Shown here: piece after piece, positions 2,512 to 61,168 of the stretch
Layout: every line of letters starts with the position of its first letter
Numbering within the stretch: the stretch's first letter is position 1
NCBI GenBank assembly: GCA_934647305.1
Contig: CAKUFI010000003.1
Span: 7,915 to 71,914 of the forward strand
From: an uncultured Clostridia bacterium
GTDB taxonomy: Bacteria; Bacillota; Clostridia; Christensenellales; Aristaeellaceae
Direction: 5' to 3'
Length of the DNA: 64,000 bases
Program-made: the position numbers and the translations under genes
Notes under the pieces: generated by a model
What the model was told of the DNA's origin: nothing
Databases searched by the model: none
Seen by the model: the letters and a program-made list of their open reading frames with translations, nothing else

Positions 2512-3531
2512 TTATTCGCCGCGAACCGTGCGCAGCAGCTGTTCAAAGAGTATGCGGTGCGAGGCGTAGACCTGCTCGCAGGTATAGTGCGTGCCGGGCT
2601 CATCGACGACGCACTGGTTGCTCTCGAAGGTCGCGCTGACCGCGCCGCAGACGTGATGCAGCGCGCTGGTCAGGTTGAAGGAGGGCGGCGTCGCGCCCTG
2701 TTCCCTGCCCGGCAGGTCGCGCACGTGGAAGGCGAGGCCCTGCGCCCCGGCCACCTCGTTGCAGCGGATGGCGAGGCTTCTGAGTGCCTGCTGGCACTCG
2801 AGGGTGACGTAGTCGGGCTGCAGCAGGTCGTTGACCGAGTTGGAGCCGCCGTGCATCTGGATCACCCAGTCGGCCGCCTCCGCGTCGCACAGGTCGAGCA
2901 GCGCCTGCGTCTCGCGCGCCATCGGATGGAAGAAGTTGTCGTGCATCAGGTTCACGCCGTCGTCGTTGTAGTACCCGCCCAGGAAATCCACGTAGTCCCT
3001 GATCGGGTGCTGCTTTTTGCACTCCGGCCAGCCGCACAGGCTGCCGTCCTTCCAGGTTCCCTGCATCCAGTACCGCAGCTCGTACCCAGTGCAGCCGATC
3101 ATCGAGGCGGGCTGAACGCGCGCGCGGCCGTCCGCGTTGCAGACCGGCACGATCACCAGCCGCACGCCCTCCGCCGCCTCGACCAGCGAGGGATACGCGT
3201 CGCCGCGCAGGTCCTTTCCGGTTTCCATGAGCGAAATCAGGTTGACCAGCGCGGCCGTGCCCTCGGTTTCGCCGCCGTGTACCGCGCCCAGCAGCGCCAC
3301 GACCGGCTTTTTGCCCTCTACAGGCGCATAGCAACTCTTATCGTGCGCGCCGCAGGCCGAGCTGTAGTTAGCGCGGCGGGTGAATTCCTGTTTCCCGCCA
3401 TAGGCAAAGGCCCAGACGTCGCGGCCGCCGGCGCTTTTGCACAGGCTCCAGGTCTGCGCGCGGCGGGCCTTTTTCGCCCAGGATTCGATGGTTTCAAGGT
3501 CTGTCTTCCAGAAGGCGGGGGCGTTCTGCAT
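2512..3531 (-). CDS. Zinc peptidase-like protein, M14 / succinylglutamate desuccinylase-aspartoacylase (AstE/AspA)-like family
   Basis: HxxE zinc motif in LLGAVHGGETEG. AAGGAGG SD 9 nt upstream of ATG. Last gene of the SBP-permease-permease operon. Confidence 0.5.
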   Translation of the reverse strand: MQNAPAFWKTDLETIESWAKKARRAQTWSLCKSAGGRDVWAFAYGGKQEFTRRANYSSACGAHDKSCYAPVEGKKPVVALLGAVHGGETEGTAALVNLISLMETGKDLRGDAYPSLVEAAEGVRLVIVPVCNADGRARVQPASMIGCTGYELRYWMQGTWKDGSLCGWPECKKQHPIRDYVDFLGGYYNDDGVNLMHDNFFHPMARETQALLDLCDAEAADWVIQMHGGSNSVNDLLQPDYVTLECQQALRSLAIRCNEVAGAQGLAFHVRDLPGREQGATPPSFNLTSALHHVCGAVSATFESNQCVVDEPGTHYTCEQVYASHRILFEQLLRTVRGE

Positions 3532-5461: not shown

Positions 5462-5815
5462 GGGAACGTTCGAGAGGCGGCTTTCCTGACCGGGCAGTGC
5501 CCGGCCCCACTTGCTGCCGCGGATTCTATTGACGACTTCGGGAGCCATAGATTGAAGCCCCCGAAGTCTGTGAATTCCCGGAAAGCTCGATAGGATGCAG
5601 CTCTCTCGACCGGGCAGTGCCCGGCCCCACTTGCTGCCGCGGATTCTATTGACGACTTCGGGAGCCATAGATTGAAGCCCCCGAAGTCTGTGAATTCCCG
5701 GTAAGCTCGATAGGATGCAGCTCTCTCGACCGGGCAGTGCCCGGCCCCACTTGCTGCCGCGTATCCTATTGACGACTTCAGGGGGCATAAATTGAAGCCC
5801 CCGAAGTCTGTGAAT
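5462..5815. repeat. Tandem array of three 120-bp units (family A core ...CCGGGCAGTGCCCGGCCCCACTTGCTGCCGC... plus GACTTCGGG-loop-CCCGAAGTC hairpin)
   Basis: Sequence lines 5501-5560 and 5621-5680 are identical; third copy has 3-4 substitutions. The 112-aa track ORF here is a translation artefact of the array. Confidence 0.85.
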
Positions 5816-5881
5816 CCTTTAGAGAAAACCGGCAGGGGTGGCAGCGGCGGGGAGAAGCACTCCTCCCCGCCGCAGGACGCG

Positions 5882-15587: not shown

Positions 15588-15650
15588 GGCTACGCTGGGG
15601 AGGCCGCCTTTTTGACCGGGCAGTGCCCGGACCCACTTGCTGCCGCCAAT
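15588..15650. repeat. Family A repeat unit (GGGGAGGCCGCCTTTTTGACCGGGCAGTGCCCGGACCCACTTGCTGCCGCC) immediately after the stop codon
   Basis: Near-identical copy at 47176-47240 after the yfcE-like gene. Confidence 0.6.
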
Positions 15651-15808
15651 CCACTCGACACGCGGTTCATTGGCGCGGCATACGAGGCCGCATGGCTCTT
15701 TGCCTCTCCCCAAACCCCTCACGAAAAGCACTATGATCCACGAAATGGAAAAGATAAGAGAAATGTGGGTCTCCGAATGAAATGTTGGAGTAACGGAGGA
15801 TTGAAAGC

Positions 15809-18306: not shown

Positions 18307-18828
18307 ATGGAATTTGAACGCGTGACGACGACCGATCATCCGCTCTATCAGGACGCGCTGGCGCTCTACCGGGCCAGTTTTCCGCCGCATGAACAGCGGG
18401 AGGCCGCCTCGCAGCAGGCGATCCTGAGAAACGAAGCCTATCACTTCGACCTGCTGCTTGACGCGGGAGAATGGGTGGGCGAAGCGCTGTACTGGGACGC
18501 GGGCGACTTTCTGTACCTGGAGCACTTCTGCATCCGGCCCGAGCTGCGCAACCGCCGATACGGCCAGAAGGCGCTCGAGGTGCTGTGCAGGCGGCCGCTG
18601 ATCCTGGAAATCGACCCGCCGGTCGACGAGATTTCGATTCGCCGGAAGGGATTCTACGAGCGCTGCGGACTGGTCGTAAACCCGTATCCGCACGTGCACC
18701 CGCCGTATCACGCGGGCAATCGCGGCCACGACCTGGTGCTCATGACCGCGCCCAGGCAGATCACCTCACAGGAATTCGACGAATTCACCCGGTTTCTGCG
18801 CGGCGTAGTGATGAAGGACGTTTACTAA
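18307..18828 (+). CDS. GNAT family N-acetyltransferase
   Basis: 173 aa. Motif region LYLEHFCIRPELRNRRYGQKAL (Q/RxxGxG/A-like). GGGGAGGA SD. Confidence 0.7.
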   Translation: MEFERVTTTDHPLYQDALALYRASFPPHEQREAASQQAILRNEAYHFDLLLDAGEWVGEALYWDAGDFLYLEHFCIRPELRNRRYGQKALEVLCRRPLILEIDPPVDEISIRRKGFYERCGLVVNPYPHVHPPYHAGNRGHDLVLMTAPRQITSQEFDEFTRFLRGVVMKDVY

Positions 18829-18835
18829 TAAGGAT

Positions 18836-19612
18836 GCAGCCGGCAGGCTGAGCCTGCACCCACTTGCTCCCGCCGATTCTGGCGACGAATTCGGGAACCA
18901 TAAATTGGAGTCCCCGAATTCTGCGGATTTCCAGAAAATTTCTGGAAATCATAAGTCGGCGTTGCCGACTCAGCTTGTCAAAAAAGGTTTTGACAAGCTG
19001 GTGGACGGGGAAGCAAGCTCCCCCGCCACTGCCACCCTCACCAGTCTCCGCTAAAAATCAAAGATTTTTCGGGCGCGGAGCCTGCAGGGAAACGATTTTT
19101 TCTCTGGAAAATGGGATTTTCCGGCGCAAAAATCGCCCCGTGCCCACCGTACACGCCGCTGGGCACGATTGAAAGTTCGAAAGGGCTGCGGCCCTCTCGA
19201 GCTCTCCGGGGGTTTTTTGACAGTCTGAGTCGGCGTTGCCGACAGCCACCTGCTGCCGCGCATCCTCTCGACGACCCTGAGGGCCATAAATGAAGCCCTC
19301 AGGGTCTCTGAATTCCCGAAATTCTCCGAGAATTTCCCGCGGCAGGCAGTGCCTGCACCCACTTGCTGCCGCCGGTTCTGGCGACGAAATTGGGAACCAT
19401 AGATTGGAGTTCCCAATTTCTCCGGTTTTCCGGAATTCTCCGAAAAACTCCCGTCGGCGTTGCCAGCTCGGGCAGTGCAAATATACAGCGTGGGCATGGG
19501 GCGATTTTTGTAAATCACATTTTCCAGAGAAAAAACGTTTCTTGCTTCCCCAGCTGCCAGCTTGTTAAAACTTTTTTAACAAACATACCGGCGCCCTCCG
19601 CTGTGGAGAGCG
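18836..19612. repeat. ~780-bp mosaic repeat island: two family A units (18836-18925, 19330-19420), family D palindromes GTCGGCGTTGCCGAC, and an embedded family E element
   Basis: Multiple hairpin modules shared with islands at 33286-33830, 49900-50235, 58262-58870. Track ORFs inside (19051..19518 etc.) judged artefacts. Confidence 0.8.
18954..19243. mobile_element. MITE-like family E element (~290 bp) bounded by ~20-bp terminal inverted repeats AGTCGGCGTTGCCGACTCAG / CTGAGTCGGCGTTGCCGAC; contains a 13-bp-stem palindrome CAGCTTGTCAAAA-N4-TTTTGACAAGCTG
   Basis: A ~260-bp near-identical copy lies in inverted orientation at 58310-58570. Non-coding; no transposase in window. Confidence 0.45.
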
Positions 19613-19622
19613 CCGGTTGCTT
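19588..19622 (-). terminator. Putative intrinsic terminator of the flotillin gene (CCGGCGCTCTCC-loop-GGAGGGCGCCGG then T-rich tail on minus strand)
   Basis: 12-bp stem with one mismatch immediately downstream of the stop at 19631. Confidence 0.4.
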
Positions 19623-19630
19623 AACGGTGG

Positions 19631-21031
19631 TTACTTCGCTTCGGGTTCGGGCTTCGTCTCGTCCTTCAGGGCGGCGCGCTGCTCGAGCACGCGGCGGATG
19701 TCGATGCCGGTGGACTCTCGCATGCCTTCCATGATCTGGCTGGCGCTGTTCATCACGTCGCGCACCACGCGAGTGGCGTTGCCGTCGCCATACATGACGA
19801 TCTTGTCGGTCTGGGCGAGCGGGCTGGCGGCGTTCTTGACCACCTCGGGCAGGGCCTGCAGGTACATGTCCAGGATCGAGGCCTCGCCCATCTTGCGCTG
19901 CGCCTCCGCCTTCTTTTCGATGGCCTCGGCTTCGGCCAGGCCCTTGGCGCGGATACCGGCGGCCTCCTGCTCCATGGCGTAGCGCAGAGCTTCCGCCTCG
20001 GCCTTGCGGGCCTCAGCCTGCTGGATGGCCTCGTACTTCTGCGCCTCGGCCTCCTTCTGGCGGCGGATCAGGTCGGCCTCCGCGTCCTTTTCGGCCTTGT
20101 ACTTCATTGCGTCGGCCTGCTTGCGGATGTCCGCGTCCAGCTGACGCTCCTTGAGGGCGATGTCCTTCTCGGCCAGCTCGGCTTCCTTCTCGCGGCGGGC
20201 GATGTCGGCGTTGGTTTTGGCGACCTCAATGGTCTTGCGCTGGGACTCTTGCTGGATGGAGTAGGCCGCGTCGGCCTCGGCGCGCTTGGTATCGGCCAGC
20301 ACCTTCATGTCGCCCTGCTGCACGGCAAGCTGCGCGTTCTGCTCTGCGATCTTCTTTTCGGCCTCGACCTTGATGGCGTTGGCCTCCTCCTGCGCCTTGC
20401 TGGTGGCGATGGCGATGTCGCGCTGGGCGTTGGCCTTGGCGATCTGGGCGTTCTTGCGAATCTGCTCCACGTTGTCGATACCCATGTTCTCGATGGTGCC
20501 GGCGCTGTCCTTGAAGTTCTGGATGTTGAAGTTGACCACCTCGATGCCCAGCTTCTCCATGTCGGGCACGACGTTTTCGGTGATCTTCTTGGCTACGCCC
20601 TGGCGGTCCTGCACCATTTCCTTCAGGCCGACCGAGCCGACGATCTCGCGCATGTTGCCCTCCAGCACCTGCGTCACCAGGCTGATGAGCTCAGTCTGCT
20701 TCATGCCCAGCAGCGACTCGGCAGCGCGCTTGAGCAGCTCGGGGTTGGAGGAAATCTTGATGTTGGCCACGCCGTCCACCGAGACGTTGATGAACTCGTT
20801 GGTGGGCACGGCCTCGCTGGTCTTCACGTCCACCTGCATGACCTTGAGCGACAGCTTGTCGACCCGCTCAAAGAAGGGCACCCGCCAGCCCGCGCGGCCG
20901 ATCAGTATGCGGCGCTTACCCAGGCCGGAGATGATGTAGGCGGTGTCCGGCGGGGCCTTGAGATAGCCCAGCGCCAGCAGCAGCAGAAACAGGGCGATCA
21001 GGATACCCAGGATGGTGAGGATGGTTTCCAT
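19631..21031 (-). CDS. Flotillin-like SPFH/band-7 protein (FloT/YuaG-like, ~466 aa)
   Basis: N-terminal TM (METILTILGILIALFLLLLALGYL), SPFH domain, long EA-rich coiled coil (KAEAEALRYAMEQEAAGIRAKGLAEAEAIEKKAEAQRKM). AAAGGAG SD before the ATG at 21031; own TTGCGC-17-TAGAAT promoter. Confidence 0.8.
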   Translation of the reverse strand: METILTILGILIALFLLLLALGYLKAPPDTAYIISGLGKRRILIGRAGWRVPFFERVDKLSLKVMQVDVKTSEAVPTNEFINVSVDGVANIKISSNPELLKRAAESLLGMKQTELISLVTQVLEGNMREIVGSVGLKEMVQDRQGVAKKITENVVPDMEKLGIEVVNFNIQNFKDSAGTIENMGIDNVEQIRKNAQIAKANAQRDIAIATSKAQEEANAIKVEAEKKIAEQNAQLAVQQGDMKVLADTKRAEADAAYSIQQESQRKTIEVAKTNADIARREKEAELAEKDIALKERQLDADIRKQADAMKYKAEKDAEADLIRRQKEAEAQKYEAIQQAEARKAEAEALRYAMEQEAAGIRAKGLAEAEAIEKKAEAQRKMGEASILDMYLQALPEVVKNAASPLAQTDKIVMYGDGNATRVVRDVMNSASQIMEGMRESTGIDIRRVLEQRAALKDETKPEPEAK

Positions 21032-23317: not shown

Positions 23318-23470
23318 TCGAGGGACGTTCCTTCGGGCGGCCGCAGCCGCCCGTAAAATGCGGTTTTCCTCTGGAAAACCGCTTCCCTGCAGGCTAGATG
23401 GCCTGTGGGTGGGGTCTGGGGAGGCGCGGCCGTTCAGGGCGCCCTCCCCAGTCAGCCGGGGCGCCGGCGA
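23318..23470. repeat. Family C structured repeat (~150 bp, three hairpins incl. GGGGAGGCGCGGCCGTTCAGGGCGCCCTCCCC), copy 1
   Basis: Copy 2 at 43340-43500 shares about 85% identity. Hairpin 1 differs by compensatory changes (GCGGTTTTCC/GGAAAACCGC vs GCGATTTCC/GGAAATCGC). Confidence 0.7.
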
Positions 23471-28404: not shown

Positions 28405-28482
28405 TATTGGGTATGAACAGGCGCTTTGCCTAAGTGCCTGCCCGTGTTTCAAAAGACTATGAACGGATAGAGGTAAGTGAGC

Positions 28483-30249
28483 ATGTTCCAGTCCAGAACC
28501 CATACCTGCGGCGAGTTGCGCCTGTCCGACGCCGGAAAGAAGGTCACTCTGGTCGGTTGGATGGAAAACGTCCGCGAGGTCGGCAGCACGCTGGCCTTCG
28601 TGATCCTGCGCGACTTCTACGGCACGACCCAGATCGTGGTGGAAAACAACGACGAAATCATGGCCTTTATCAAGGGCCTGAACTGCGAGTCCACCATCTC
28701 CGTGACCGGCACCGTGCGCGAGCGCTCCAGCAAGAACCCCAAGCTGCCCACCGGCGAAATCGAGGTGGTGCCTGAGAAGGCGGAGCTGCTGGGCAAGTGC
28801 ATCTACAACGAGCTGCCCTTCGAAATCAACCGCTCCCGCGAGGCCGACGAAAACACCCGCCTGCGCTATCGTTACCTCGACCTGCGCAACCCGGCGGTCA
28901 AGAGCAAGATCGTGCTGCGCAGCCAGATCGTCTCCGACCTGCGCCGCAGCATGACCGACCACGGCTTCCTGGAGATCACCACGCCCATCCTGACCAGCTC
29001 CTCGCCCGAGGGCGCGCGCGACTACCTAGTGCCCTCCCGCATCCATCCCGGCAAGTTCTACGCCCTGCCCCAGGCCCCGCAGCAGTTCAAGCAGCTGCTG
29101 ATGACCTCCGGCTTCGACCGTTATTTCCAGATCGCCCCCTGCTTCCGCGACGAGGACGCCCGCGCGGACCGCTCCCCCGGCGAGTTCTATCAGCTGGACA
29201 TGGAGATGGCCTTCGCCTCCCAGGAGGACGTGTTCGCGGTGCTGGAGGACGTGCTGCCCCCCATCTTCGCCCGGTACGGCAAGTACAACCGCGCCTCGAG
29301 CGCGCCCTTCAAGCGCATCGCCTACAACGACGCGATGGACAGGTACGGCTCCGACAAGCCCGACCTGCGCATCAAGCTGCTGGTGGACGACGTGACCGCG
29401 CTTATGCAGGGCACCGGCTTTGAACCCTTCGAGGGCAGCATGGTCAAGGCGGTGGTCGTGCCCTCGTTCAGCCAGACCCGCAAGTTCATCGACAACCTGA
29501 TGAAGGACGTCGAGGTGCAGTCGGGCGGCAAGGGCTACTGGTTCAAGGTGGGCGACGATGGCTCCTTCTCCGGCGGCATCGCCAAGTTCGTGGCCGACCG
29601 CAGCGCGCAGCTGACCGAGGCGCTCTCGCTCAAGCCGGGCGCGTGCGTGTTCCTGTGCGCGGGCAAGAAGACCGCGGCGCAGAAGACCGCCGGCGTGATG
29701 CGCAAGATGCTGGGCAACGCGCTGCCTGAATACATGGACAAGGAATGCTATGAGTTCTGCTGGATCGTGGACTTCCCGATGTACGAAATCGGCGAGGAGT
29801 CCGGCGAACTCGAGTTCTGCCACAACCCCTTCTCGATGCCCCAGGGCGGCCTGAAGGCGCTGTGCGAGCAGGATCCGCTGACCATCAACGCCTATCAGTA
29901 CGACCTGGTCTGCAACGGCGTGGAGTTGTCCTCCGGCGCGGTGCGCAACCACGACCCGGAGATCATGATCAAGGCCTTCGAGCTGGTGGGCCTGGGCGAG
30001 GCCGACGTGAAGGCCAAGTTCCCCGCCATGTACAACGCCTTCTGCTATGGCGCGCCGCCGCATGCCGGCATTGCGCCCGGCGTGGACCGCATGGTCATGC
30101 TGATCGCGGGCGAGGACAGCATTCGCGAGGTCATCCCCTTCCCGATGAACAAGAACGCGCAGGATCTGATGATGGGCGCGCCCTCCTTCGTCGAGCCCAA
30201 ACAGCTCACCGACGTGCACATCGCCATCCTGGAAAAGGAAAAGGACTGA
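28483..30249 (+). CDS. aspS: Aspartate--tRNA ligase
   Basis: Class II aaRS. N-terminal OB anticodon-binding domain (RTHTCGELRLSDAGKKVTLVGW...), motifs FYQLDMEMAF, GGIAPGVDRMVML-type C-terminus. Confidence 0.95.
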   Translation: MFQSRTHTCGELRLSDAGKKVTLVGWMENVREVGSTLAFVILRDFYGTTQIVVENNDEIMAFIKGLNCESTISVTGTVRERSSKNPKLPTGEIEVVPEKAELLGKCIYNELPFEINRSREADENTRLRYRYLDLRNPAVKSKIVLRSQIVSDLRRSMTDHGFLEITTPILTSSSPEGARDYLVPSRIHPGKFYALPQAPQQFKQLLMTSGFDRYFQIAPCFRDEDARADRSPGEFYQLDMEMAFASQEDVFAVLEDVLPPIFARYGKYNRASSAPFKRIAYNDAMDRYGSDKPDLRIKLLVDDVTALMQGTGFEPFEGSMVKAVVVPSFSQTRKFIDNLMKDVEVQSGGKGYWFKVGDDGSFSGGIAKFVADRSAQLTEALSLKPGACVFLCAGKKTAAQKTAGVMRKMLGNALPEYMDKECYEFCWIVDFPMYEIGEESGELEFCHNPFSMPQGGLKALCEQDPLTINAYQYDLVCNGVELSSGAVRNHDPEIMIKAFELVGLGEADVKAKFPAMYNAFCYGAPPHAGIAPGVDRMVMLIAGEDSIREVIPFPMNKNAQDLMMGAPSFVEPKQLTDVHIAILEKEKD

Positions 30250-32285: not shown

Positions 32286-33272
32286 TCATTTTCTTGCGGC
32301 CGCTTTTCGGGAGAGCTCGAGAGGGGCTTTTCTCAGAAAAGCCGCCTCTCGATCGTTCCCTCCCCCCAGCCAGATGCCGGCAAAAACACAGGCGAACGCG
32401 ATGAGATAGCCCGGGCGCAGGATGTTTTCGCCCAGCAGAACGGCCGAACACAGCGCGCCGAAGAGCGGCTCGGCAAACTTGATCTGGTTGAGCCGGGAAA
32501 GGTCGTTGTGCGCCAGCAGCAGGTTCCACAGGGCGTAGCCCAGGCAGGAGGCCAGGCACAGGTAGCCAAACAGTCCCAGCGCGCCGGGCGTGACTTGCCC
32601 AAACCGCCCGCCCAGCAGCAGTCCCGCCGCCGTGAGCATCACCCCGCCGAACAGCTGCGCCCAGGCGGTGACGCTCAGCGGATCCAGTCGGTCGTAGGCG
32701 GCCTTCGACACCAGCATCGAGGCGGCCGAGCACAGCGACGCGGCCAGCACCAGCGCCTCGCCCCGTCCCAGGTGGATCTTCAGCCCATCCAGGTTGATCG
32801 CCAGAATGCCCGCGAAGCCCAGCAGACCGCTGACCAGCTTGCGCGCGGTGAAGCGATCCTCCTTCCTGAACAGAAACGCAAAGCAGATCAGCAGCAGCGA
32901 CCCGGTCTGCTTGAGCAGGGCGGTTTTCGAGCTCTCGATCAGGGAGACGCCGAGGTAGGTGCAGGTGTAGTGCGCCGCGTAGCCGGTCAGCGCGATGAGC
33001 AGTATGGGGCGCAGCGAGCGCCTCTCGGGCAGGCAGGCCCGAAGCGAACGTCCGCCTGAACAGGCGCAGGCCGCGAGCAGCAGCGCCGCGCCGCAGACCA
33101 GAAAGCGCACGCCCGCAAACAGCAGGATGTCCGCCGGGCGGGCCGCGTCGATCGACAGCGCGCGATAGCTCAGCTTGATGCAGGGATACAGCGACCCCCA
33201 GAAAAACATGGCGAGCAGCGCCAGCGGCGTGGCGGCCTTCCGGCTGCCGAACAGATCTTTTTTCATATGCAT
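32286..33272 (-). CDS. DMT-superfamily (EamA-like) transporter; last ~20 codons read through a family B repeat
   Basis: 10 predicted TM segments. Start MHMKKDLF at 33272 (or 33266). Track ORF extends further 5' into the repeat island (artefact). Confidence 0.7.
   Translation of the reverse strand: MHMKKDLFGSRKAATPLALLAMFFWGSLYPCIKLSYRALSIDAARPADILLFAGVRFLVCGAALLLAACACSGGRSLRACLPERRSLRPILLIALTGYAAHYTCTYLGVSLIESSKTALLKQTGSLLLICFAFLFRKEDRFTARKLVSGLLGFAGILAINLDGLKIHLGRGEALVLAASLCSAASMLVSKAAYDRLDPLSVTAWAQLFGGVMLTAAGLLLGGRFGQVTPGALGLFGYLCLASCLGYALWNLLLAHNDLSRLNQIKFAEPLFGALCSAVLLGENILRPGYLIAFACVFAGIWLGGGNDREAAFLRKAPLELSRKAAARK
32288..32348. repeat. Family B hairpin unit (GAGAGGGGCTTTTCTCAGAAAAGCCGCCTCTC) overlapped by the 3' end of the DMT transporter CDS
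   Basis: Related units at 37340-37380, 58275-58314, 58570-58610, 60725-60755. Confidence 0.5.
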
Positions 33273-33285
33273 TTCTACTCTTTCC

Positions 33286-33830
33286 GTGAAATCCAGAGAT
33301 TTAAGAGGCAGCCCTTCCGGTCGGCAGGGCCGACAGCCACCTGCTGCCGCCGGGTCGGCAGGGCCGACAGCCACCTGCTGCCGCGGGGTCGGCAGGGCCG
33401 ACAGCCACCTGCTTCCGCCGAAGCCAAGACGAATCCTTCGGCCATAAATTGAAGCCTCAGGATTCTTCGTTTGGAGAGAATCAGATGCAGTACCCCGCAA
33501 GAGCTGCGGCAGGCTGAGCCTGCACCCACTTGCTGCCGCGGGTTCTGGCGACGAATTCGGGAACCATAAATTAGAATTCCCGAATTCTCCGAATCCACGA
33601 AATCCTTCGTGGATTGACGGTCGGGCAGGCTGAGCCTGCACCCACTGGCTGCCGCCGGACAGCACACGAAATTGGGAACCATAGATTAGAGTCCCCAATT
33701 TCTCCGTTTTTCCGGAATTCTCCGAAAAACTCCTGTCGGCATTGCCGACTCGGGCAATGGCGCGGGGAGCGTGCTTCCCCGATCACCAGCTTGCCAAACC
33801 CCTTTTGACAAGCTGAGGCGGCCTTTCGGA
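33286..33830. repeat. Mosaic repeat island: 3 tandem 33-bp units GGTCGGCAGGGCCGACAGCCACCTGCTGCCGCC (33322-33420), two family A units (33500-33590, 33615-33710), partial family E end (33735-33830)
   Basis: Direct sequence comparison with the 18836-19612 and 58262-58870 islands. Confidence 0.8.
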
Positions 33831-33904
33831 AAAAGCCGCCTCTTTCTCATGCCGCCGGTTCAATCAGGCCCGTCAGCCCGCGCCGCGCGGCTCTTCATGA
33901 ATGC

Positions 33905-37327: not shown

Positions 37328-37450
37328 CTTATTGTTGGGGGAACGTTCGAGAGGCGGCCTTTCTGAGAAAGGCCCCTCTCGAGCTCTCCCGGAAAGCACT
37401 TTGATCCGCGCAAGGAATCACCGAAAGAAACGTAATTCCCCGAATGCAGG
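37328..37450. repeat. Family B unit (GGGAACGTTCGAGAGGCGGCCTTTCTGAGAAAGGCCCCTCTCGAGCTCTCCCGGAAAGCACTTTGATCCGCGCAAGGAATCACCGAAAGAAACGTAATTCCCCGAATGCAGGCGCTGC)
   Basis: About 95% identical over the hairpin and GGAAAGCACTTTGATCCGC segment to 58570-58620; CCCCGAATGC tail conserved at 58650-58690. Confidence 0.6.
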
Positions 37451-37487
37451 CGCTGCAAAAGTCGCATTAAGCAGACATTCCACAGTT

Positions 37488-43339: not shown

Positions 43340-43500
43340 AGACGCTCCCGGGCGGCCGCAGCCGCCCGTAAAATGCGATTTCCCCCAGGAAATCGCTGCC
43401 TTGCAGCCCCGTTGGGGCTGTGGGTGGGGTCTGGGGAGGCGCGGACGTTCAGGCCGCCCTCCCCAGCAAACCGGGCCGCGGCAGCAAAGCTGTCGCGGCC
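43340..43500. repeat. Family C structured repeat, copy 2 (immediately 3' of htpG)
   Basis: See copy 1 at 23318-23470. Confidence 0.7.
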
Positions 43501-47171: not shown

Positions 47172-47380
47172 CGGGGGGCTACGTTGGGGAGGCCGCCTTT
47201 TTGACCGGGCAGTGCCCGGACCCACTTGCTGCCGCCGGATAACTGAAAGGTTGTCTTGCGTCAAAGCCTGCTGCGGACAGCCAACCCTCAGCCCCTCTCG
47301 AGCTCTCCCGAAAAGTACTATGATCTTCAAAACATATTTTCAGAAAGAAATGTGATTCCCCGAATGCAGCGCAGGAGGGG
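47172..47380. repeat. Family A unit followed by family B-tail (…CCCCTCTCGAGCTCTCCCGAAAAGTACTATGATC…CCCCGAATGCAGCGCAGGAGG) immediately 3' of the yfcE-like stop
   Basis: Sequence comparison with 15588-15650, 37328-37450 and 60705-61085. Confidence 0.7.
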
Positions 47381-47458
47381 AAAACGAGAAACGAGGGTCG
47401 TTTTTCTAAAAAAGCGTCGAGTACAGATACCACTCATCAAAACCGTATAACAAAAACG

Positions 47459-47508: not shown

Positions 47509-47689
47509 ACGGGGACTTTTTTCAGGAAGGCTCTGGGCGCGGGCATAAAACCTCTCCCGAAAGGGAACAGGCCGCAAGGCGGGATGCCGTCTCGTTCGAG
47601 GAACCGCGTTTCTCTTTTCCACTCCCACGCACCCACATCTCATTCGGGGAACCGCATCTCTCCAACAATCCTTCTTTTGCGGATCAATG

Positions 47690-47756
47690 TGTTTTCCGGG
47701 TGGGGCCTGGGGAGGCGCCTTTTTCAAAAAGGCGGCCTCCCCAGCGTTCCCCTCGT
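47690..47756. repeat. Family C-type hairpin (GGGTGGGGCCTGGGGAGGCGCC-TTTTTCAAAAA-GGCGGCCTCCCCAG) abutting the recG stop
   Basis: Related to 23395-23460 and 43415-43480 and to 50040-50100. Confidence 0.5.
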
Positions 47757-49766: not shown

Positions 49767-49899
49767 ACGATAAACCTCCTGTGGGAGAACGCTGGGGAGG
49801 CTGACGATCTGAGCAGGCAGCGCCAAAGCCCATTTGCCGCCCAGCCAGAAGAAATGCGGTCAGCCCCCTCTCAACCCCTCAGTCGCCTGCGGCGACAGC

Positions 49900-50235
49900 T
49901 CCCCTTTCAGGAGAGCCTCATGCCGGCGCGGAGCGGACGGAGATGTTCACAAACGCAGAATTCGGGAACTCCAATTGATGGTTCCCGAATTCATCGCCAG
50001 AATCCGCGGCAGCAAGTGTGTGGGCAACGCCCACCAGACAAACTTCGGTGGGGGTCTGGGGGAGCGCGAAGCGAAGCGGAGCCTCCCCCAGCGGGAGACG
50101 CTGCAATGCGGAACCACGCAGACCTTGGCCGCTTCAATCTATGGCGGCCAATGGTCGTCGCCAGAATCCGCGGCAGCAAGGGGCCGTCGGCCCTGCCGAC
50201 CGGCAGCACCGCCTCCAGGCTCAGCCTGGTAGATG
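49900..50235. repeat. Repeat island with two inverted-orientation family A units and a GTCGGCAGGGCCGAC palindrome; overlapped by the methyltransferase 3' end
   Basis: GAATTCGGGAACTCCAATTGATGGTTCCCGAATTC and GGCAGCAAGTG(T/G)G elements are reverse complements of family A modules. Confidence 0.7.
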
Positions 50236-50966
50236 CGGAGGTATTCGGCGGTGGGCGCGCCGTCGTCCGACTGGAGAATGAGCGGGGGCAGCCAGTGCAG
50301 CATCGAGCCGCCGCCCTTGATCGCCTCCACGAGCACCAGCTTGGGCGCGTCGCCCGCGCGGTGGTGGACGGTGCGCACTCGCTTGGGCTCGAGGCGGGCG
50401 TTTCGCATGGCGCACATCAGCTCCAGCATGCGCGGCGCTGGAAACACGACCGCAAACCGCCCGCCCGTTCGCAGCAGCCGAAAGGCGGAAAGGCACACGT
50501 CCTCAATGGTGCAGTCGCCCTCATGCCGCGCAATGCGCTCGGTTTCGCGCTCGCTGCGCAGCGTGCCGCCCGCCTTGCCGTAGGGCGGGTTGCAGACGGC
50601 CAGCGTGTATTTTTCACAGCCCAGGACGCGATGCGCCTGCCTGAAGTCCTCGCAGAGCACCGAAATCTGGTCCTCAAGGCCGTTGAGAAGCACGCTGCGA
50701 GCGGCTATATCAGCCATATCGGGCTGGATTTCCACCGCGGTGCAGCGGACATTTACCTGATGAGAGACGGCCAGCAGCGCGATCACGCCGGTGCCCGTAC
50801 CCAGGTCGACCATCTGCTCGCGGGGCCTGGGCTGCGCAAAGTCGGCCAGCAGCACCGCGTCGGTGCCATAATGAAAGGCCTTTTTCTTTTGCAGGATGAC
50901 GAGCGAGGGGCCATTCAGCTCCTCCAGCCGCTCGCCCTCCCGGATCAAAGCAGTCTGAATCCCCAT
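50139..50966 (-). CDS. Class I SAM-dependent N6-adenine-type methyltransferase (tRNA m6A37 TrmN6/YfiC-like or RsmD-like); C-terminal ~30 aa encoded by repeat DNA
   Basis: DLGTGTGVIAL SAM motif and NPPY catalytic motif. Start overlaps the P60 gene end by 22 nt. Confidence 0.55.
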   Translation of the reverse strand: MGIQTALIREGERLEELNGPSLVILQKKKAFHYGTDAVLLADFAQPRPREQMVDLGTGTGVIALLAVSHQVNVRCTAVEIQPDMADIAARSVLLNGLEDQISVLCEDFRQAHRVLGCEKYTLAVCNPPYGKAGGTLRSERETERIARHEGDCTIEDVCLSAFRLLRTGGRFAVVFPAPRMLELMCAMRNARLEPKRVRTVHHRAGDAPKLVLVEAIKGGGSMLHWLPPLILQSDDGAPTAEYLRIYQAEPGGGAAGRQGRRPLAAADSGDDHWPP

Positions 50967-53803: not shown

Positions 53804-53832
53804 CTCAATCTTCTCCTTTGTATCCGGTACGG

Positions 53833-56800: not shown

Positions 56801-56916
56801 GCGGCCGGCGCGGGCAGGATTGTCAGCAGCAGCAGTGCCGCCATCAGGCAGCAGAGCAGGCGCATCGGCCAGGTTTTTCGCCTCTCGTGGGGTTTCTTGT
56901 GCGTTCGGTTGTTCAC
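53833..56916 (-). CDS. Secreted SpoIID/LytB-domain protein with two PG-binding repeats and five SH3b-like repeats separated by Pro/Thr/Ala linkers
   Basis: GTG start with GAAGGAGG SD. Basic n-region + hydrophobic signal peptide. SpoIID block YPIEALKTQAIAARTYALR. SH3b repeats VNISGSRLNLRQKASTSSKILARLSGGTKVTVLGESGNWYHVNYNGTLGYLS. Confidence 0.8.
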   Translation of the reverse strand: MNNRTHKKPHERRKTWPMRLLCCLMAALLLLTILPAPAAQAAGDGMIRVKLTKLGSGLSSITLKTSGGYACAGKTIASGSTVTVAQSGSGLTLSVNGQTVTSGSQIALNRLSGGLSSSVKFTSPSKSNTFHADLIFSVNGGIQTVARMYIETYLYGVVGYEMSNSYPIEALKTQAIAARTYALRAKKSSGSYDVTDNTNSQVFYGYSSSQKNVISAVDGTRGVCLTTGSGAYAQCFYTASNGGQTESTANIWGGSASYLVVKDDPYDLENPGSRVKSALIPKNGSVSAALSQALLDAADSQLTSAGLKSSGRKITGISEVTPHTPKYAAPSRVYTKLRFTLTATDGSKTAQATVNLATFGGVEDMLGLSINSSSNEIVSVEESGAAFTLSFRRFGHGVGMSQRGAQQMASAYGKSYRDILSFYYPGTTVATRSLGESLYGAGGEVIGGDTDPEETLSYGSSGEAVKELQRNLQALGFFEGSIGGNYLTLTEQAVKAYQTARGLTADGVATPELQKRIAQEAQGGEQPTPTPAPQYPLALIQMPNSGVRLNVRKGPGTGHKIVGRVTHGTQVEVLGASGSWSQIRTESLEGYVMTTYLKMIEATATPAPSETPAPDGETLSYGSSGEAVKALQRRLKELGYFDGEIGGNYLAKTQEAVQAFQRANGLNPDGVATPELQKLIFGAQATATPAPEPTPEPTQTPETGRGGVVNISGSRLNLRQKASTSSKILARLSGGTKVTVLGESGNWYHVNYNGTLGYLSRDYVRVTEETPTAAPTTAPTAAPTSQPTAAPTQAPETGRTGVVNISGSRLNLREKASTSSKILTRLSGGTKVTVLGESGNWYHVNYNGTLGYLSKAYVRVTGDVSPTAAPTASPTQTPETGREATIQIENGGALHLRKGPGTDTESLGYVQNGDKATILGESGEWYRVRVDGKEGYLKKIYLDGGAQAPEATPAPTAAPTQAPEREATIHIENDGTLHLRKGPSTDTESLGYVQNGDKAAILGESGEWYRVRVDGKEGYLKKIYLVG

Positions 56917-57724: not shown

Positions 57725-58300
57725 GTGGCAAAGCTATACTTTCGATACGGAGCGATGGGTTCGAGCAAGACGGCGAACGCCATCATGGTGCAGTACAACT
57801 ATCACGAGCGTGGGCAGAAGGCGCTCATGCTCAAGCCCAGGCTCGAAACCCGTGACGGTGAGAAGACCGTCCGCTCGCGCAGCGGCCTGAGTGCGCCCTG
57901 CGAGTACGTCGAGGATCTGGATACAATCGACGTGTCCGCCTACGACTGCCTGATCGTAGACGAGGCGCAGTTCCTGACCAAATCGCAGGTCGAGCGGCTG
58001 GTGCGCGTCGTGGACGAGCAGAACGTCCCGGTCATCGCCTACGGCCTGCGCGCCGACTTCCGCGGCAACCTGTTCGAGGGCAGCATGTGGCTGCTCGCCT
58101 GGGCGGACGCCATCGAGGAAATCAAAACCGTCTGCTGGTGCGGCCGCAAGGCTACCTGCAACGCCCGCATACACGACGGCCGCGTCGTCAAGGACGGCCA
58201 GCAGATCCTGCTCGGCGGCAACGAAAGCTACGTCAGTCTCTGCCGCAAACACTGGCGCGAGGGGAACGTTGGGGAAACGATCGAGAGGCGGCCTTTCTGA
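57725..58300 (+). CDS. tdk: Thymidine kinase; last ~12 codons encoded by a family B repeat
   Basis: GTG start giving MAKLYFRYGAMGSSKT (P-loop), matching E. coli MAQLYFYYSAMNAGKS. Zn ribbon CWCG...C...C near the C-terminus. Confidence 0.9.
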   Translation: MAKLYFRYGAMGSSKTANAIMVQYNYHERGQKALMLKPRLETRDGEKTVRSRSGLSAPCEYVEDLDTIDVSAYDCLIVDEAQFLTKSQVERLVRVVDEQNVPVIAYGLRADFRGNLFEGSMWLLAWADAIEEIKTVCWCGRKATCNARIHDGRVVKDGQQILLGGNESYVSLCRKHWREGNVGETIERRPF

Positions 58301-58870
58301 GAAAGGCCCCTCAGACTGTCAAAAAACCCCGGAGAGCTCGAGAGGGCCGCAGCCCTTTCGAACTTTCAATCGTGCCCAGCGGCGTGTACGGTGGGCACGG
58401 GGCGATTTTTGCGCCGGAAAATCCCATTTTCCAGAGAAAAAATCGTTTCCTTGCAGTCTCCGCGCCCGAAAAATCTTTGATTTTTAGCGGAGACTGGTGA
58501 GGGTGGCAGTGGCGGGGGAGCTTGCTTCCCCGTCCACCAGCTTGTCAAAACCTTTTTTGACAAGCTGAGGCGGCCTTTCTGAGAAAGGCCCCTCTCGAGC
58601 TCTCCCGGAAAGCACTTTGATCCGCAAAACTGATTAGTCGGACAGACGTGATACCCCGAATGCGGCGCAGGAGGGGGAGAACGCTCCTTCGCGGGAGCAC
58701 GGCGCTGAGCCTCTCCTGAAAGGGGAGGTGCCCGCTATGCGGGCGGAGGGGTTCCGGGCGGCAGCCAAACCCCACCCGGAAAGCACTTTGATCCGCGCAA
58801 ACTGATTCGGCAGACAGACGCGGCACCCCGAATGCGGCGCGGGAAAGAAACGTTGAAGCGGCGAACAGTC
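58262..58870. repeat. Mosaic repeat island: family B hairpins (58275-58314, 58570-58610) flanking an inverted copy of the ~260-bp family E element (58310-58570), then family B/CCCCGAATGCGGCG tails
   Basis: 58310-58570 is the reverse complement (near-identical) of 18955-19215. Confidence 0.8.
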
Positions 58871-58919: not shown

Positions 58920-60902
58920 GTGGCGAAGGGATTTTTGCCGGTTACGGCGCAGGAAATGCGTGATTTGGGCTGGGAGCAGCCGGATTTTGTGTTCGTCACC
59001 GGCGACGCATACGTAGATCATCCCTCGTTCGGCCTGGCCATCATCTCGCGGGTGCTGGAGCACGCCGGGTACAGGGTGGCCATGCTGCCCCAACCGGAGT
59101 ACCACTCCTGCGAGGAGTTCAAGCGCTTCGGCCGGCCGAGGCTGGGCTTTCTGGTGATGGCGGGCGTGATCGACAGCATGGTCAATCACTACACCGTGGC
59201 CAAAAAGCGCCGCTCGGAGGACGTGTATTCGCCCGGCGGCGTGGGCGGCAGGCGGCCCGACCGCGCCACGATCGTCTACTGCAACCGCATCCGGGAGGTC
59301 TATGGCAGCGTGCCGATACTCATCGGCGGGGTCGAGGCCTCGCTGCGCCGTTTCGCGCACTACGACTACTGGGACGACCGGGTGCGCAACTCGATCCTGG
59401 TGGACAGCGGCGCCGACCTGCTGATCTACGGCATGGGTGAGAACACGATTCAGACGGCGGCCAAATGGCTGGAGACCGGCCTGCCTTTCAGTCAATCGCG
59501 CATTCCGGGCACCTGCATCCTGTGCAAAGAGCCGCTGGCGGACTACCTGCTCATCGAGTCGATGGAGGAGGTCGCGCATGACAAGGAAGCCTACGCCCGC
59601 GCCTTCAAGACGCAATACGACGAGCAGGATCCGATTCGCGGCCGGGGCATCTGCCAGAAGCACGGCAGGAGCTACCTGGTCGCGCACAAGCCCTGCATGC
59701 CGCTGACGCAGGAGCAGCTGGACGAGACTTATGCCCTGCCCTACATGCGCACCTGGCATCCGATGTACGACGCGGCGGGCGGCATTCCGGCGCTTCAGGA
59801 GGTCGAGTTCTCGATCGCGCACAACCGCGGCTGCTTCGGCTCGTGCTCGTTCTGCGCGCTGACCTTTCATCAGGGGCGCATTGTGACCTCGCGCAGTCAC
59901 GAATCGGTGCTCGCCGAGGCCAAACTGCTGACCAGGCGGCCCCGCTTCAAGGGCTACATACACGATGTGGGCGGCCCGACCGCCAACTTCCGCCGCCCGG
60001 CCTGCAAGGGTCAGCTGACGCGCGGCGCGTGCAAGGGCAAGCAGTGCCTGTTCCCTCAGCCCTGCAAAAACCTGGACGCGGATCACGAGGACTACATCAA
60101 ACTCCTGAGCGAGGTGCGCTCGCTGCCCGGCGTGAAGAAGGTATTCGTGCGCAGCGGCGTGCGGTTCGACTATGTGCTGGCCGACAAGGCACAGAAGTTC
60201 CTGCCCGAGCTGGTCAGGCATCACGTCTCCGGTCAGCTCAAGGTCGCGCCGGAGCACGTGTCCCCCCGCGTGCTGCGCTACATGGGCAAGCCCGAGGTGT
60301 CGGTCTATGAGGAATTCGTGCGCCGCTACAACGCGGAGAACGAAAAGGCGGGGCTCAAGCAGTTCCTCGTACCCTACTATATGTCCTCGCATCCCGGCTG
60401 CACACTCAAGGACGCGATCGAGCTGGCGCTGTTCATCAAGCGGAGCGGACACCGCCCCGAGCAGGTGCAGGACTTCTACCCCACCCCCGGCACGCTGTCC
60501 ACCGCCATGTTTTACACCGGCCTCGACCCGCGCGACATGAAGCCGGTTTACGTGCCCAGGGATCCCCACGAGAAGGCCATGCAGCGCGCGCTCATGCAGT
60601 ACTTCATTCCCGCCAACCGGCCGCTCGTGCTCGAGGCGCTCCGCCGCGCAGGCCGCACTGACCTGATCGGACACGGCCCCGACTGTCTGGTCTGGGACGA
60701 TCACCGCAGGGGGAACGTTGGGGAGACGGCTTTTCTGAGAAAAGCCTCTCCCCAAGCCCCTCACGAAAAGCGCCATGATCCGCGCAAACAAGCTCGGTAC
60801 ACAGATGAAGCTCCCCGAATGCGGCGTGGAGGGAACGTCGAGGAAACGGCGAAAAAAGCCTCTCCCGGAAAGTACTCTGATCCGCGCAGGAAACGCAAAT
60901 AA
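58920..60902 (+). CDS. YgiQ-family (UPF0313) radical SAM protein; 3' ~200 nt of the ORF runs through repeat DNA, true C-terminus uncertain
   Basis: FLPVTAQEMRDLGWEQPDFVFVTGDAYVDHPSFG matches the conserved YgiQ N-terminus. CxxxCxxC cluster motif CFGSCSFC. GTG start with GGAGG SD (the track uses an upstream ATG lacking an SD). Confidence 0.75.
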   Translation: MAKGFLPVTAQEMRDLGWEQPDFVFVTGDAYVDHPSFGLAIISRVLEHAGYRVAMLPQPEYHSCEEFKRFGRPRLGFLVMAGVIDSMVNHYTVAKKRRSEDVYSPGGVGGRRPDRATIVYCNRIREVYGSVPILIGGVEASLRRFAHYDYWDDRVRNSILVDSGADLLIYGMGENTIQTAAKWLETGLPFSQSRIPGTCILCKEPLADYLLIESMEEVAHDKEAYARAFKTQYDEQDPIRGRGICQKHGRSYLVAHKPCMPLTQEQLDETYALPYMRTWHPMYDAAGGIPALQEVEFSIAHNRGCFGSCSFCALTFHQGRIVTSRSHESVLAEAKLLTRRPRFKGYIHDVGGPTANFRRPACKGQLTRGACKGKQCLFPQPCKNLDADHEDYIKLLSEVRSLPGVKKVFVRSGVRFDYVLADKAQKFLPELVRHHVSGQLKVAPEHVSPRVLRYMGKPEVSVYEEFVRRYNAENEKAGLKQFLVPYYMSSHPGCTLKDAIELALFIKRSGHRPEQVQDFYPTPGTLSTAMFYTGLDPRDMKPVYVPRDPHEKAMQRALMQYFIPANRPLVLEALRRAGRTDLIGHGPDCLVWDDHRRGNVGETAFLRKASPQAPHEKRHDPRKQARYTDEAPRMRRGGNVEETAKKASPGKYSDPRRKRK

Positions 60903-61085
60903 CAGGCGCAATCCTCCGAATGCGGCGTTGGAGGGAAACGGAGAACGACGAAGGCCCCTCACGAAAAGCGCCATGATCCGCGCAAACAAGCTCGGTACAC
61001 AGATGAAGCTCCCCGAATGCGGCGCGGGAAGGGAAACGGCGGGAAGCACAAATGACAAACGCGGCACTCCGAACGCGGCGCGAAA
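60705..61085. repeat. Repeat island of family B/CCCCGAATGCGGCG units including a perfect 71-bp direct repeat (60757-60827 = 60954-61024)
   Basis: Direct comparison. Track ORFs 60604..61101(-) and 60775..61215(+) are artefacts of the repeats. Confidence 0.75.
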
Positions 61086-61168
61086 CGGAGACCGACGGCA
61101 AAACGCTTGCAGCGCGCCGCGTTTTGGGGTATTATATAGGTTGAAAAGGCATCGACAAGGAGAGCAGC

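Follow-up and report, generated by a model that had tools for sequence, protein, structure and literature searches.

Hairpin-forming repeat mosaics at gene 3' ends of an uncultured gut Clostridia bacterium, and a small element that inserts at palindromes and duplicates them

What are the hairpin-forming repeats that crowd the 3' ends of genes in an uncultured gut Clostridia lineage, and how did they come to be packed and nested there? The question is raised by a stretch of 64,000 nucleotides (hereafter the window; positions 7,915 to 71,914 of contig CAKUFI010000003.1, assembly GCA_934647305.1), and in particular by its positions 18836-19612, the focal region. [quoted passage not shown] The reading that we favour, and hold to be fairly probable, is that these are selfish DNA repeats able to form hairpins, and not dedicated RNA genes, that in a clade of uncultured gut Clostridia (Eubacteriales) they have accumulated at gene 3' ends as a mosaic similar to bacterial interspersed mosaic elements (BIMEs) and to BOX elements, and that family E among them is a palindrome-duplicating element.

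The repeat system itself is confirmed. The core of family A, CCACYTGCTGCCGC, has 15 matches in the window with at most one mismatch, against 0.11 expected from 100 dinucleotide shuffles, and the motifs of the second A hairpin (its loop), of the B hairpin, B middle and B tail, of the C and D hairpins and of the E terminus occur 4-14 times each, against 0-0.5 in shuffles. A de novo repeat search returns the same families and, when the window is compared by BLAST with 73 loci of other species, the short matches are confined to the twelve loci already described and to 49873-49918 and 58708-58754. The locus coordinates are thus correct and the counts far above those of shuffled sequence. Coverage is dense as described, but not about 7% of the window: the intervals then listed total 6.0%, and the shared repeats cover 3,472 nt, equal to 5.4% of the window as a whole and to 44% of its non-coding part. 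The placement at gene 3' ends is borne out, the repeats lying between co-directional or convergent genes: 11 of the 29 spacers carry them, including all three large convergent spacers and none of the six divergent ones.

Family E gives the clearest answer to the question. It is not the unit of about 260-290 bp first described, but a non-coding element of 255-257 nt (257 nt in the focal region) with exact ends, CAGCTTGTCAAAAAAG ... TTTTTTGACAGTCTG. Its terminal inverted repeat is imperfect (CAGCTTGTCAAAAAA versus CAGACTGTCAAAAAA, 13 of 15 positions) and is kept in 12 aligned copies from different contigs, whose mean column identity is 93%. As single-stranded DNA, E folds into six consecutive hairpins (DNA fold z = -6.2 relative to shuffled sequence), and 99.2% of the stem cells in the 12-copy alignment are paired, 11 pairs being changed on both sides.

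E is bordered by target duplications in which a whole hairpin is repeated directly. In the window these are of 17 nt (at 18954 and 19228) and of 26 nt (at 58286 and 58568), the latter being perfect. In contigs of metagenome-assembled genomes (MAGs) and other related loci, which are numbered with the prefix L, they are of 24 nt (L008), 26 nt (L014), 24 nt (L040) and 17 nt (L112), and a 23-nt duplication is reconstructed from two contigs of one sample (L110 and L117). This makes seven cases, of 17-26 bp, which usually run A...T. When E and one duplicate are removed in silico at 58.3 kb, a canonical B unit is obtained, like the intact one at 37334. The nesting of modules described earlier is accordingly found, as E lies within a B hairpin at 58312-58567 and adjoins a D hairpin at 18971-19227. 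The D hairpin at 18954/19228 is itself the target-site duplication of E; all five motif families are enriched, but D is not an independent one, being of the same hairpin type as the first and fourth hairpins of A.

The preference for palindromes extends to the whole junction set (43 distinct left and 21 right junctions). A palindrome of at least 8 bp is found within 30 nt in 67% of the left and 57% of the right flanks, against 2% of random 30-mers, with a median distance of ~12.5 nt from palindrome axis to junction; left flanks end in T in 35/43 cases and right flanks start with A in 13/21. The targets are of unrelated sequence: the third A hairpin (L008), the D hairpin (window), B hairpins (window, L014, L100 and L101), and also unrelated terminator-like hairpins of ordinary genes. 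As duplications of 17 nt go with 15-nt hairpins and those of 26 nt with 32-nt hairpins, it is suggested that the target is read by its shape or symmetry.

These results show that E is a non-autonomous transposable element, which integrates at hairpin-forming palindromes and duplicates them. For this family the MITE option is supported, as judged by terminal inverted repeats, seven target duplications, precise ends, high copy number and presence in several species; the lack of coding capacity and a size below the ~600 bp typical of MITEs agree with it as well. A group II intron or an IS200/IS605 element is excluded by the target duplications and the terminal inverted repeats. E has no match in a plasmid collection, a phage collection or IMG/VR, and no open reading frame (ORF) is enclosed by a pair of E termini in any locus of our related-loci set.

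Some further features of E were observed. Its left end (18971-19000; 58538-58567) is itself a palindrome of 30 nt, in which two inverted copies of the terminal 13 nt form a 13-bp stem. A TTGACA hexamer faces outward at each of the two tips, ~5 nt from the end, and could serve as a -35 box or offer further copies a place to land. A 342-nt variant (L085 615-957, L101, L114) has an extra 86 nt consisting of three more hairpins after the second one, so that E itself gains hairpin modules.

In families A, B, C and D, successive hairpins are strung together by conserved linkers. As aligned from 98 copies, the A unit consists of a first hairpin (hp1, 6-bp stem), NN, the core CCACYTGCTGCCGC, a 10-13-nt linker, a second hairpin (hp2, 11-bp stem, loop CCATARATTGRAG) and TCTKCG, usually followed by a variable hp3 and then by hp4 (GTCGGCRYTGCCGAC, the former family D). 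hp1 measures 15 nt, the core 14 nt and the conserved hp2 loop 13 nt. In these copies 95.6% of the stem cells are paired, shuffled and slid controls being far lower. Linkers and loops are fixed while stems change in a compensatory fashion, the invariance of core and hp2 loop being partly due to ascertainment, as the core and part of the loop were fixed in the search pattern. Covariation, which it had been proposed to look for, is present in A and in E, with both sides changed in 15 of the 17 pairs of A and in 11 pairs of E. The A stem subfamilies differ from one MAG species to another.

hp1+core modules are also found solo and in head-to-tail chains, where one exact junction (...TGCTGCC-G-hp1) is used in 35/46 tandem joins, often with unlike hp1 stems adjacent. 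With an nhmmer profile, 248 A units are detected in ~0.5 Mb; the window accounts for 15, of which 13 lie on the plus strand. Several other identities were considered for these units and rejected. Flanking hairpin duplications like those of E are excluded, since hp1 and hp4 are systematically different and are therefore modules of the A element, not target duplications. The A hairpins are not intrinsic terminators, as CCAC or TCTKCG follows them on the 3' side and the T run is missing; terminator-like sites in 18700-19750 number 3, against 1.6 in shuffles, with none at hp1 or hp2 and one being the flotillin terminator (19587-19617). A CRISPR-like array lacks its spacers here, and integron attC sites do not fit syntenic housekeeping genes and the absence of cassettes.

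The repeat loci are distributed along the window as follows, with strands relative to the window.

5474..5833, plus strand: three tandem 120-nt A units (repeat search; nhmmer 5491-5576, 5611-5696, 5731-5816), with hp1 CCGGGCAGTGCCCGG, core CCACTTGCTGCCGC and hp2 loop CCATAGATTGAAG; between the binding-protein and permease genes of an ABC operon, antisense to both, with a B-type left arm (5462-5489) ahead
15588..15656, plus strand: B-type hairpin left arm, then A hp1+core; the same junction recurs at 47175-47236 with 98% identity
15706..15794, plus strand: B unit (GAAAAGCACTATGATCC ... CCGAATG; nhmmer B profile, repeat search)
18841..18930, plus strand: A unit (hp1, core, hp2), starting 8 nt past the GNAT stop codon, then hp3 (18927-18950)
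18954..18970, no strand assigned: left copy of the 17-nt target duplication, AGTCGGCGTTGCCGACT (family-D hairpin)
18971..19227, plus strand: E element, 257 nt
19228..19314, plus strand: right copy of the target duplication (19228-19244, AGTCGGCGTTGCCGACA), doubling as hp1 of the next A unit
19341..19429, plus strand: A unit, then hp3 and a degenerate hp4 to ~19470
19490..19585, minus strand: diverged partial E-like element with ~83% identity to E, whose terminal palindrome abuts the flotillin terminator hairpin (19587-19617)
23334..23451, plus strand: C unit, a chain of four hairpins ending GGGGAGGCGC...GCGCCCTCCCC
32302..32363, minus strand: solo B-type hairpin (GAGGCGGCTTTTCTGAGAAAAGCCCCTCTCGAGCTCTCCCG on the minus strand)
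33319..33711, plus strand: A array of three 34-nt hp1+core modules head to tail, the third extending to a full unit, and two more full units
33753..33815, minus strand: E left-end fragment (~65 nt), abutting the hairpin AGGCGGCCTTTCGGAAAAAGCCGCCT at 33816-33841
37334..37455, plus strand: intact B unit, made up of the B hairpin, GAGCTCTCCCGGAAAGCACTTTGATCCGC and CCCCGAATGC in that order; it lies antisense to the genes on either side and is the paralogue, free of E, of the interrupted B unit at 58.3 kb
43348..43473, plus strand: second C unit, 84% identity to L003
47181..47756, no single strand: composite in a convergent spacer, with B arm and A hp1+core (47181-47244, plus), B unit (47302-47382, plus), B unit (47630-47705, minus) and C-type hairpin (47709-47745)
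49949..50202, minus strand: two A units (49949-50035 and 50115-50202) separated by a C-like hairpin module (~50040-50100)
58262..58311, plus strand: first part of a B unit, which contains the left copy of the perfect 26-nt duplication (58286-58311, AGGCGGCCTTTCTGAGAAAGGCCCCT)
58312..58567, minus strand: second full E element, 98.5% identical to the copy at 18971; the same site is occupied in strain contig L120
58568..58850, plus strand: right 26-nt copy (58568-58593) and rest of the interrupted B unit (to 58678), then a hairpin module (58708-58754) and a second B unit (58770-58850)
60706..61098, plus strand: three tandem B units and a partial fourth

The B unit at 47630-47705 (minus strand), recovered with the nhmmer B profile, is a ninth B copy that was missed earlier. 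The stems of the C unit at 43348-43473 covary with those of the C copy at 23334. At 58262-58300, a thymidine kinase ORF reads into the B unit and ends at the TGA of the B hairpin loop, likewise in strain contigs, so that the repeat supplies the last codons and the stop codon.

The architecture of A points to an alternative, namely that families A-D form a true REP/RAYT system, in which a single-copy domesticated Y1 (HUH) transposase would recognise hp1 and the 14-mer on single-stranded DNA, while E would be unrelated and use the hairpins as landing pads. A hairpin with a conserved single-stranded flank is the typical substrate of HUH enzymes (REP/RAYT, IS200/IS605), and A has this architecture. 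Its units are extragenic, of high copy number and biased to gene 3' ends, their stem subfamilies differ between MAG species and compensatory stem changes are abundant. Their orientation in the window (13/15 on one strand) fits as well, and so do the mismatches in the hp2 stems, where A-C (17) exceeds G-T (6), a hint that it is the complementary strand that folds. Several results nevertheless stand against this system: there is no RayT-like match in the 656 kb of related loci used for the enzyme searches, a set that covers only a few percent of each genome; the conserved flank is of 14 nt and not a GTAG-type tetranucleotide; the arrays are direct and head-to-tail, not the inverted doublets known as REPINs; and the polymorphisms seen so far all fit recombination. 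The REP/BIME-like look and placement of A-D agree with the first-pass proposal of RAYT targets, but no support for it comes from the flank, from the arrangement of the arrays or, within the 656 kb, from a RAYT match, and we see a true REP/RAYT system as possible, though on the doubtful side.

A different alternative is that the repeats are structured RNA elements of 3' untranslated regions or operon spacers, which would serve, for instance, in mRNA stabilisation, processing or protein binding, and would be selected at the RNA level and spread only secondarily. REP-type stabilisers are known to act between the genes of an ABC operon in E. coli (malE-malF), and here too units occupy gene 3' ends and, in ABC operons, the spacer between the binding-protein gene and the permease gene. 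The strong covariation in A hp1 and hp2, its presence in the E hairpins and the fold of E (z = -6.2 versus shuffled) are all compatible with RNA, covariation being a property of DNA-level hairpin elements as well. The orientation of the A units can be read both ways: across loci, 30 are in convergent spacers, 43 in co-directional ones (29 sense, 14 antisense) and 2 in divergent ones, so that there is a 2:1 sense excess in co-directional spacers, yet one third of the units there are antisense and many others lie in convergent spacers, where either strand is transcribable. The remaining evidence is opposed to RNA. G-U pairs make up ~0.5% of the A stem cells, below A-C mismatches, G-T being also the rarer of the two in the hp2 stems; no match to the repeats is obtained from Rfam for the focal region or the whole window, either at the gathering score or at E<=0.05; the terminal inverted repeats and target duplications of E are features of DNA; and copy number differs between strains. 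The lack of an Rfam match, the mixed orientation and the lack of a G-U excess argue against dedicated RNAs, and the structured-RNA option of the first-pass annotation is not supported; we consider it very unlikely.

Strain comparisons inform on how the arrays change. In L001 and L002, a single chimeric A unit replaces window 18841-19429, with a crossover in the hp2 loop, and L001 is without 18937-19339. At the A array 33319..33711, L002 differs from the window by 168 missing nt (crossover within cores) and by one extra 33-nt hp1+core module. Of the 120-nt A unit at 5.5 kb, the window has three copies and L080 two. At 15588, the window has ~86 nt where L001 has a plain B hairpin loop. The window and L003 share the C unit at 23.3 kb, in place of which L001 and L002 have an unrelated 38 nt. 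No clean insertion of A, B or C is seen in these comparisons. They show that, once A units are in place, their arrays expand, contract and are rearranged from strain to strain, in a manner consistent with homologous recombination between cores and loops. In a separate observation, the aspartyl-tRNA synthetase (AspRS) gene of L001 (L001 12449-14233 vs window 28477-30249) has 81% protein identity, its neighbours being at 97-100%, and downstream synteny differs; this suggests a recombination or replacement event in that strain.

Could recombination then be the whole explanation? The repeats would in that case be satellite-like DNA, produced by slippage, quasi-palindrome template switching and unequal recombination only, with neither transposition nor a dedicated enzyme. 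All strain differences in A arrays can indeed be explained by recombination or slippage, and template switching at quasi-palindromes can give perfect compensatory changes without selection. However, the same modules are present at hundreds of unlinked loci in several species, and the termini of E are defined and its target duplications lie at unrelated sites, which leaves little room for a satellite origin and makes it, in our estimation, highly improbable.

The repeats are not peculiar to one genome. The gapped A-unit pattern is found in at least 73 stretches and at least 8 accession series of uncultured Clostridia MAGs, whose sources include Hadza people, rabbits and others; E is present in one of the MAGs carrying this pattern, and an E-specific 23-mer is found in 37 metagenome contigs. 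As many related contigs terminate inside repeats, and a chimera across E is seen in at least one metagenome contig, it could be asked whether repeats were collapsed or mis-joined in a single contig by assembly or binning. Independent same-species assemblies from different samples (L001-L006, L080, L120) contain the same arrays at 94-99% identity, which excludes such an artefact, and the modules are found in at least 8 MAG species; the chance that the repeats are artefactual is negligible. The two doubts that the first-pass annotation had attached to its own proposal, restriction to one contig and a lack of conservation or covariation, are thus clearly dispelled by modules present in at least 8 MAG series and by covarying stems.

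In IMG/VR, the A pattern yields one true unit (L126) and one chance match (L127). The former is a complete A unit (hp1, core, hp2, hp3, hp4) at L126 3680-3800 (IMGVR_UViG_3300013383_000373), on a 4.6-kb contig classified as viral, possibly part of a prophage or else a bacterial contig wrongly classified. An additional repeat family, with a period of ~112-140 nt, occurs in CAKTXR/CAKUAV-type MAGs and not in the window; its copies (L015 5593-5760, L035 4076-4240, L079 17-160 and 6074-6215) include AGAGTCTTCGACTCT hairpins and TGGGGCGCGCAGCCCCA.

The genomic setting is an ordinary one. The G+C content of the window is 60-70%, and its Der GTPase and one of its solute-binding proteins have identical counterparts in human-gut metagenome contigs and in an NCBI Eubacteriales MAG. 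The genes surrounding the focal region are housekeeping genes or are involved in sugar use (GNAT acetyltransferase, flotillin, ECF transporter S component, ROK, GH39, Der, PlsY, AspRS and ABC transporters), and no transposase is seen among them. Repeats of other kinds are found elsewhere in the window. Two very large ORFs (1066 and 1027 aa; 50945-56916, minus strand) contain 234-nt periodic repeats; in strain contigs, their products are annotated with SpoIID, PG_binding_1, SH3_3 and NLPC_P60 domains, and they are therefore repeat-rich cell-wall hydrolases, unrelated to the intergenic repeats. At the left edge (22-280), 5-6 tandem 39-nt repeats overlap a 102-aa minus-strand ORF and probably encode a low-complexity protein repeat. 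A 97-nt tRNA-Thr called by ARAGORN at 3097-3193 (minus strand), within the coding-like ORF 2512-3531, is probably a false positive, since Rfam finds no tRNA there even at E<=0.05.

We now return to the mosaic of selfish DNA repeats and to the way in which it might have been built. E would join ~12-13 nt on either side of the palindrome axis symmetrically, or at the base of shorter stems, and since the joins fall on either side of the axis, both flanks end up with the palindrome, as a duplication of 17-26 bp. As each flanking gene keeps one hairpin, insertion of E at terminators would be tolerated; as every hairpin-rich insert adds new targets, elements would pile up and nest. Together, tolerated insertion at terminators and new targets would account for both the 3'-end location and the nesting. 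E would be mobilised in trans by a transposase behaving like that of IS1630, an element of the IS30 family. More tentatively, the A, B and C modules may have spread as DNA through a hairpin-recognising enzyme and then been reshuffled by recombination.

A number of points weigh against this reading. Searches of the related loci by tblastn with the E. coli RayT and an IS30 transposase give nothing significant, single-sequence searches being insensitive; the best marginal RayT match (E=0.15) lies within an unrelated 305-aa ORF. All-vs-all BLASTP of 411 coding-like ORFs reveals no multi-copy transposase-like ORF, only paralogues of ABC transporter and housekeeping genes, an identity confirmed by Pfam for ten multi-copy candidates. 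Functional RNAs, too, would be expected to show compensatory stem changes. Recombination is enough to explain all the strain differences seen in A, B and C, the transposition of these families being conjectural. The termini of E (CAG...) are unlike the TGT ends of IS1202-type elements, and its link with the IS30 family is one of behaviour only. In ten complete copies of E, from low-coverage metagenome contigs, the left hairpin differs from the right one; such mismatched flanks probably result from chimeric assembly through the 256-bp repeat or from recombination between copies, a chimera being demonstrated for one of them only (L117 with L110). Finally, the empty E site at 58.3 kb was not recovered from a sister strain, the contigs retrieved ending in the repeat or carrying E.

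One could go further and propose a structure-directed transposition system, so far undescribed, in which E and possibly A, B and C integrate at the base of any palindrome of ~15-30 bp and duplicate it. Nests would then grow autocatalytically, and the A hp1+core arrays would represent a second new class of mini-elements, driven by a non-RAYT HUH-type or other hairpin-recognising enzyme. This proposal is a speculative one and we regard it as unlikely.

The mosaic of selfish DNA repeats has practical as well as mechanistic implications. These repeats break most short-read assemblies of the clade and, as related contigs end inside them, knowledge of the modules helps the assembly, binning and annotation of MAGs of gut Clostridia; spurious ORFs and shifted stop codons also arise within them. 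The A arrays, which vary between strains, are usable as strain markers, and they show how repeat-mediated recombination remodels 3' regions and operon spacers. E is a compact, sequence-independent case of palindrome-targeted integration with a palindrome-spanning duplication. Should the responsible enzyme be found, it would show how a transposase reads the shape of DNA and why terminators are safe landing sites. The main interest thus lies in the palindrome-duplicating mini-element and in the unusually dense modular arrays of an uncultured gut lineage, and the whole adds a further case to a type of selfish intergenic DNA that is already known.

Among known systems, the REP and BIME elements of Enterobacteria and Pseudomonas are similar in being short GC-rich extragenic hairpins with a conserved flank and a high copy number, which form mosaics with other motifs. 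They also share the location at gene 3' ends and inside ABC-transporter operons, the compensatory stems, and the role of hot spots for recombination and for insertion of other elements. As in REP sequences, where an imperfect palindrome of 20-40 nt adjoins a conserved motif, A has its hp1 next to the conserved core, is extragenic and is present in tens to hundreds of copies. It differs in that its flank, the 14-mer CCACYTGCTGCCGC, lies 3' of hp1 on the plus strand instead of being of GTAG type and 5' of the hairpin, in that its modules are direct and head-to-tail rather than in alternating or inverted doublets, in that the unit includes a second hairpin with a conserved 13-nt loop, and in that the host is a Gram-positive anaerobe whose related loci (656 kb) give no RAYT match; in known systems the RAYT gene usually has its REPs on its flanks. 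The neisserial and rhizobial NIME and RIME and the Correia elements are likewise intergenic mosaics, bounded by short inverted repeats and serving as sites of recombination and mobile-DNA insertion, but they follow a different module logic, and there is no evidence of phage or integrase targeting in our case.

The BOX, RUP and SPRITE elements of Streptococcus pneumoniae are modular (boxA-B-C, with a variable boxB number), form hairpins and occur as intergenic clusters with mutual insertion (PMC10969869; PMC3049150). They resemble the present repeats as several small modular families of a Firmicutes host, intergenic and inserted into one another, but there is no sequence relation, RUP duplications are a short TA, and the families described here are far richer in GC and consist of chains of short independent hairpins.

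With respect to target duplications, the IS1202 family, whose elements end in TGT, produces direct repeats of 16-17 bp and 27-28 bp (bioRxiv 10.1101/2022.12.17.520857), unusually long and similar in size to those of E; palindromic targets are not mentioned in that study, and its fixed classes contrast with the duplications of E, which vary continuously with the palindrome (17, 17, 23, 24, 24, 26, 26). IS1630 of Mycoplasma fermentans (IS30 family) is nearer in behaviour. Its reported target duplications are of 16, 23, 25 and 26 bp (PMC3317919), and its targets are inverted repeats of variable sequence, the entire repeat being duplicated (16-26 bp, compared with 17-26 bp for E; PMC3317919). IS1630 is, however, autonomous and 1.4 kb long, with inverted repeats of 27 bp and a transposase of its own, whereas E, from high-GC Clostridia, is non-coding, measures 257 nt and has repeats of ~15 bp; neither an IS30-family gene nor sequence similarity was detected in the 656 kb. 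In the literature compared, a palindrome-spanning duplication is reported for the autonomous IS1630 only, the MITE review consulted giving no example. Judged by this analogy of behaviour, IS1630 is the closest functional match to E.

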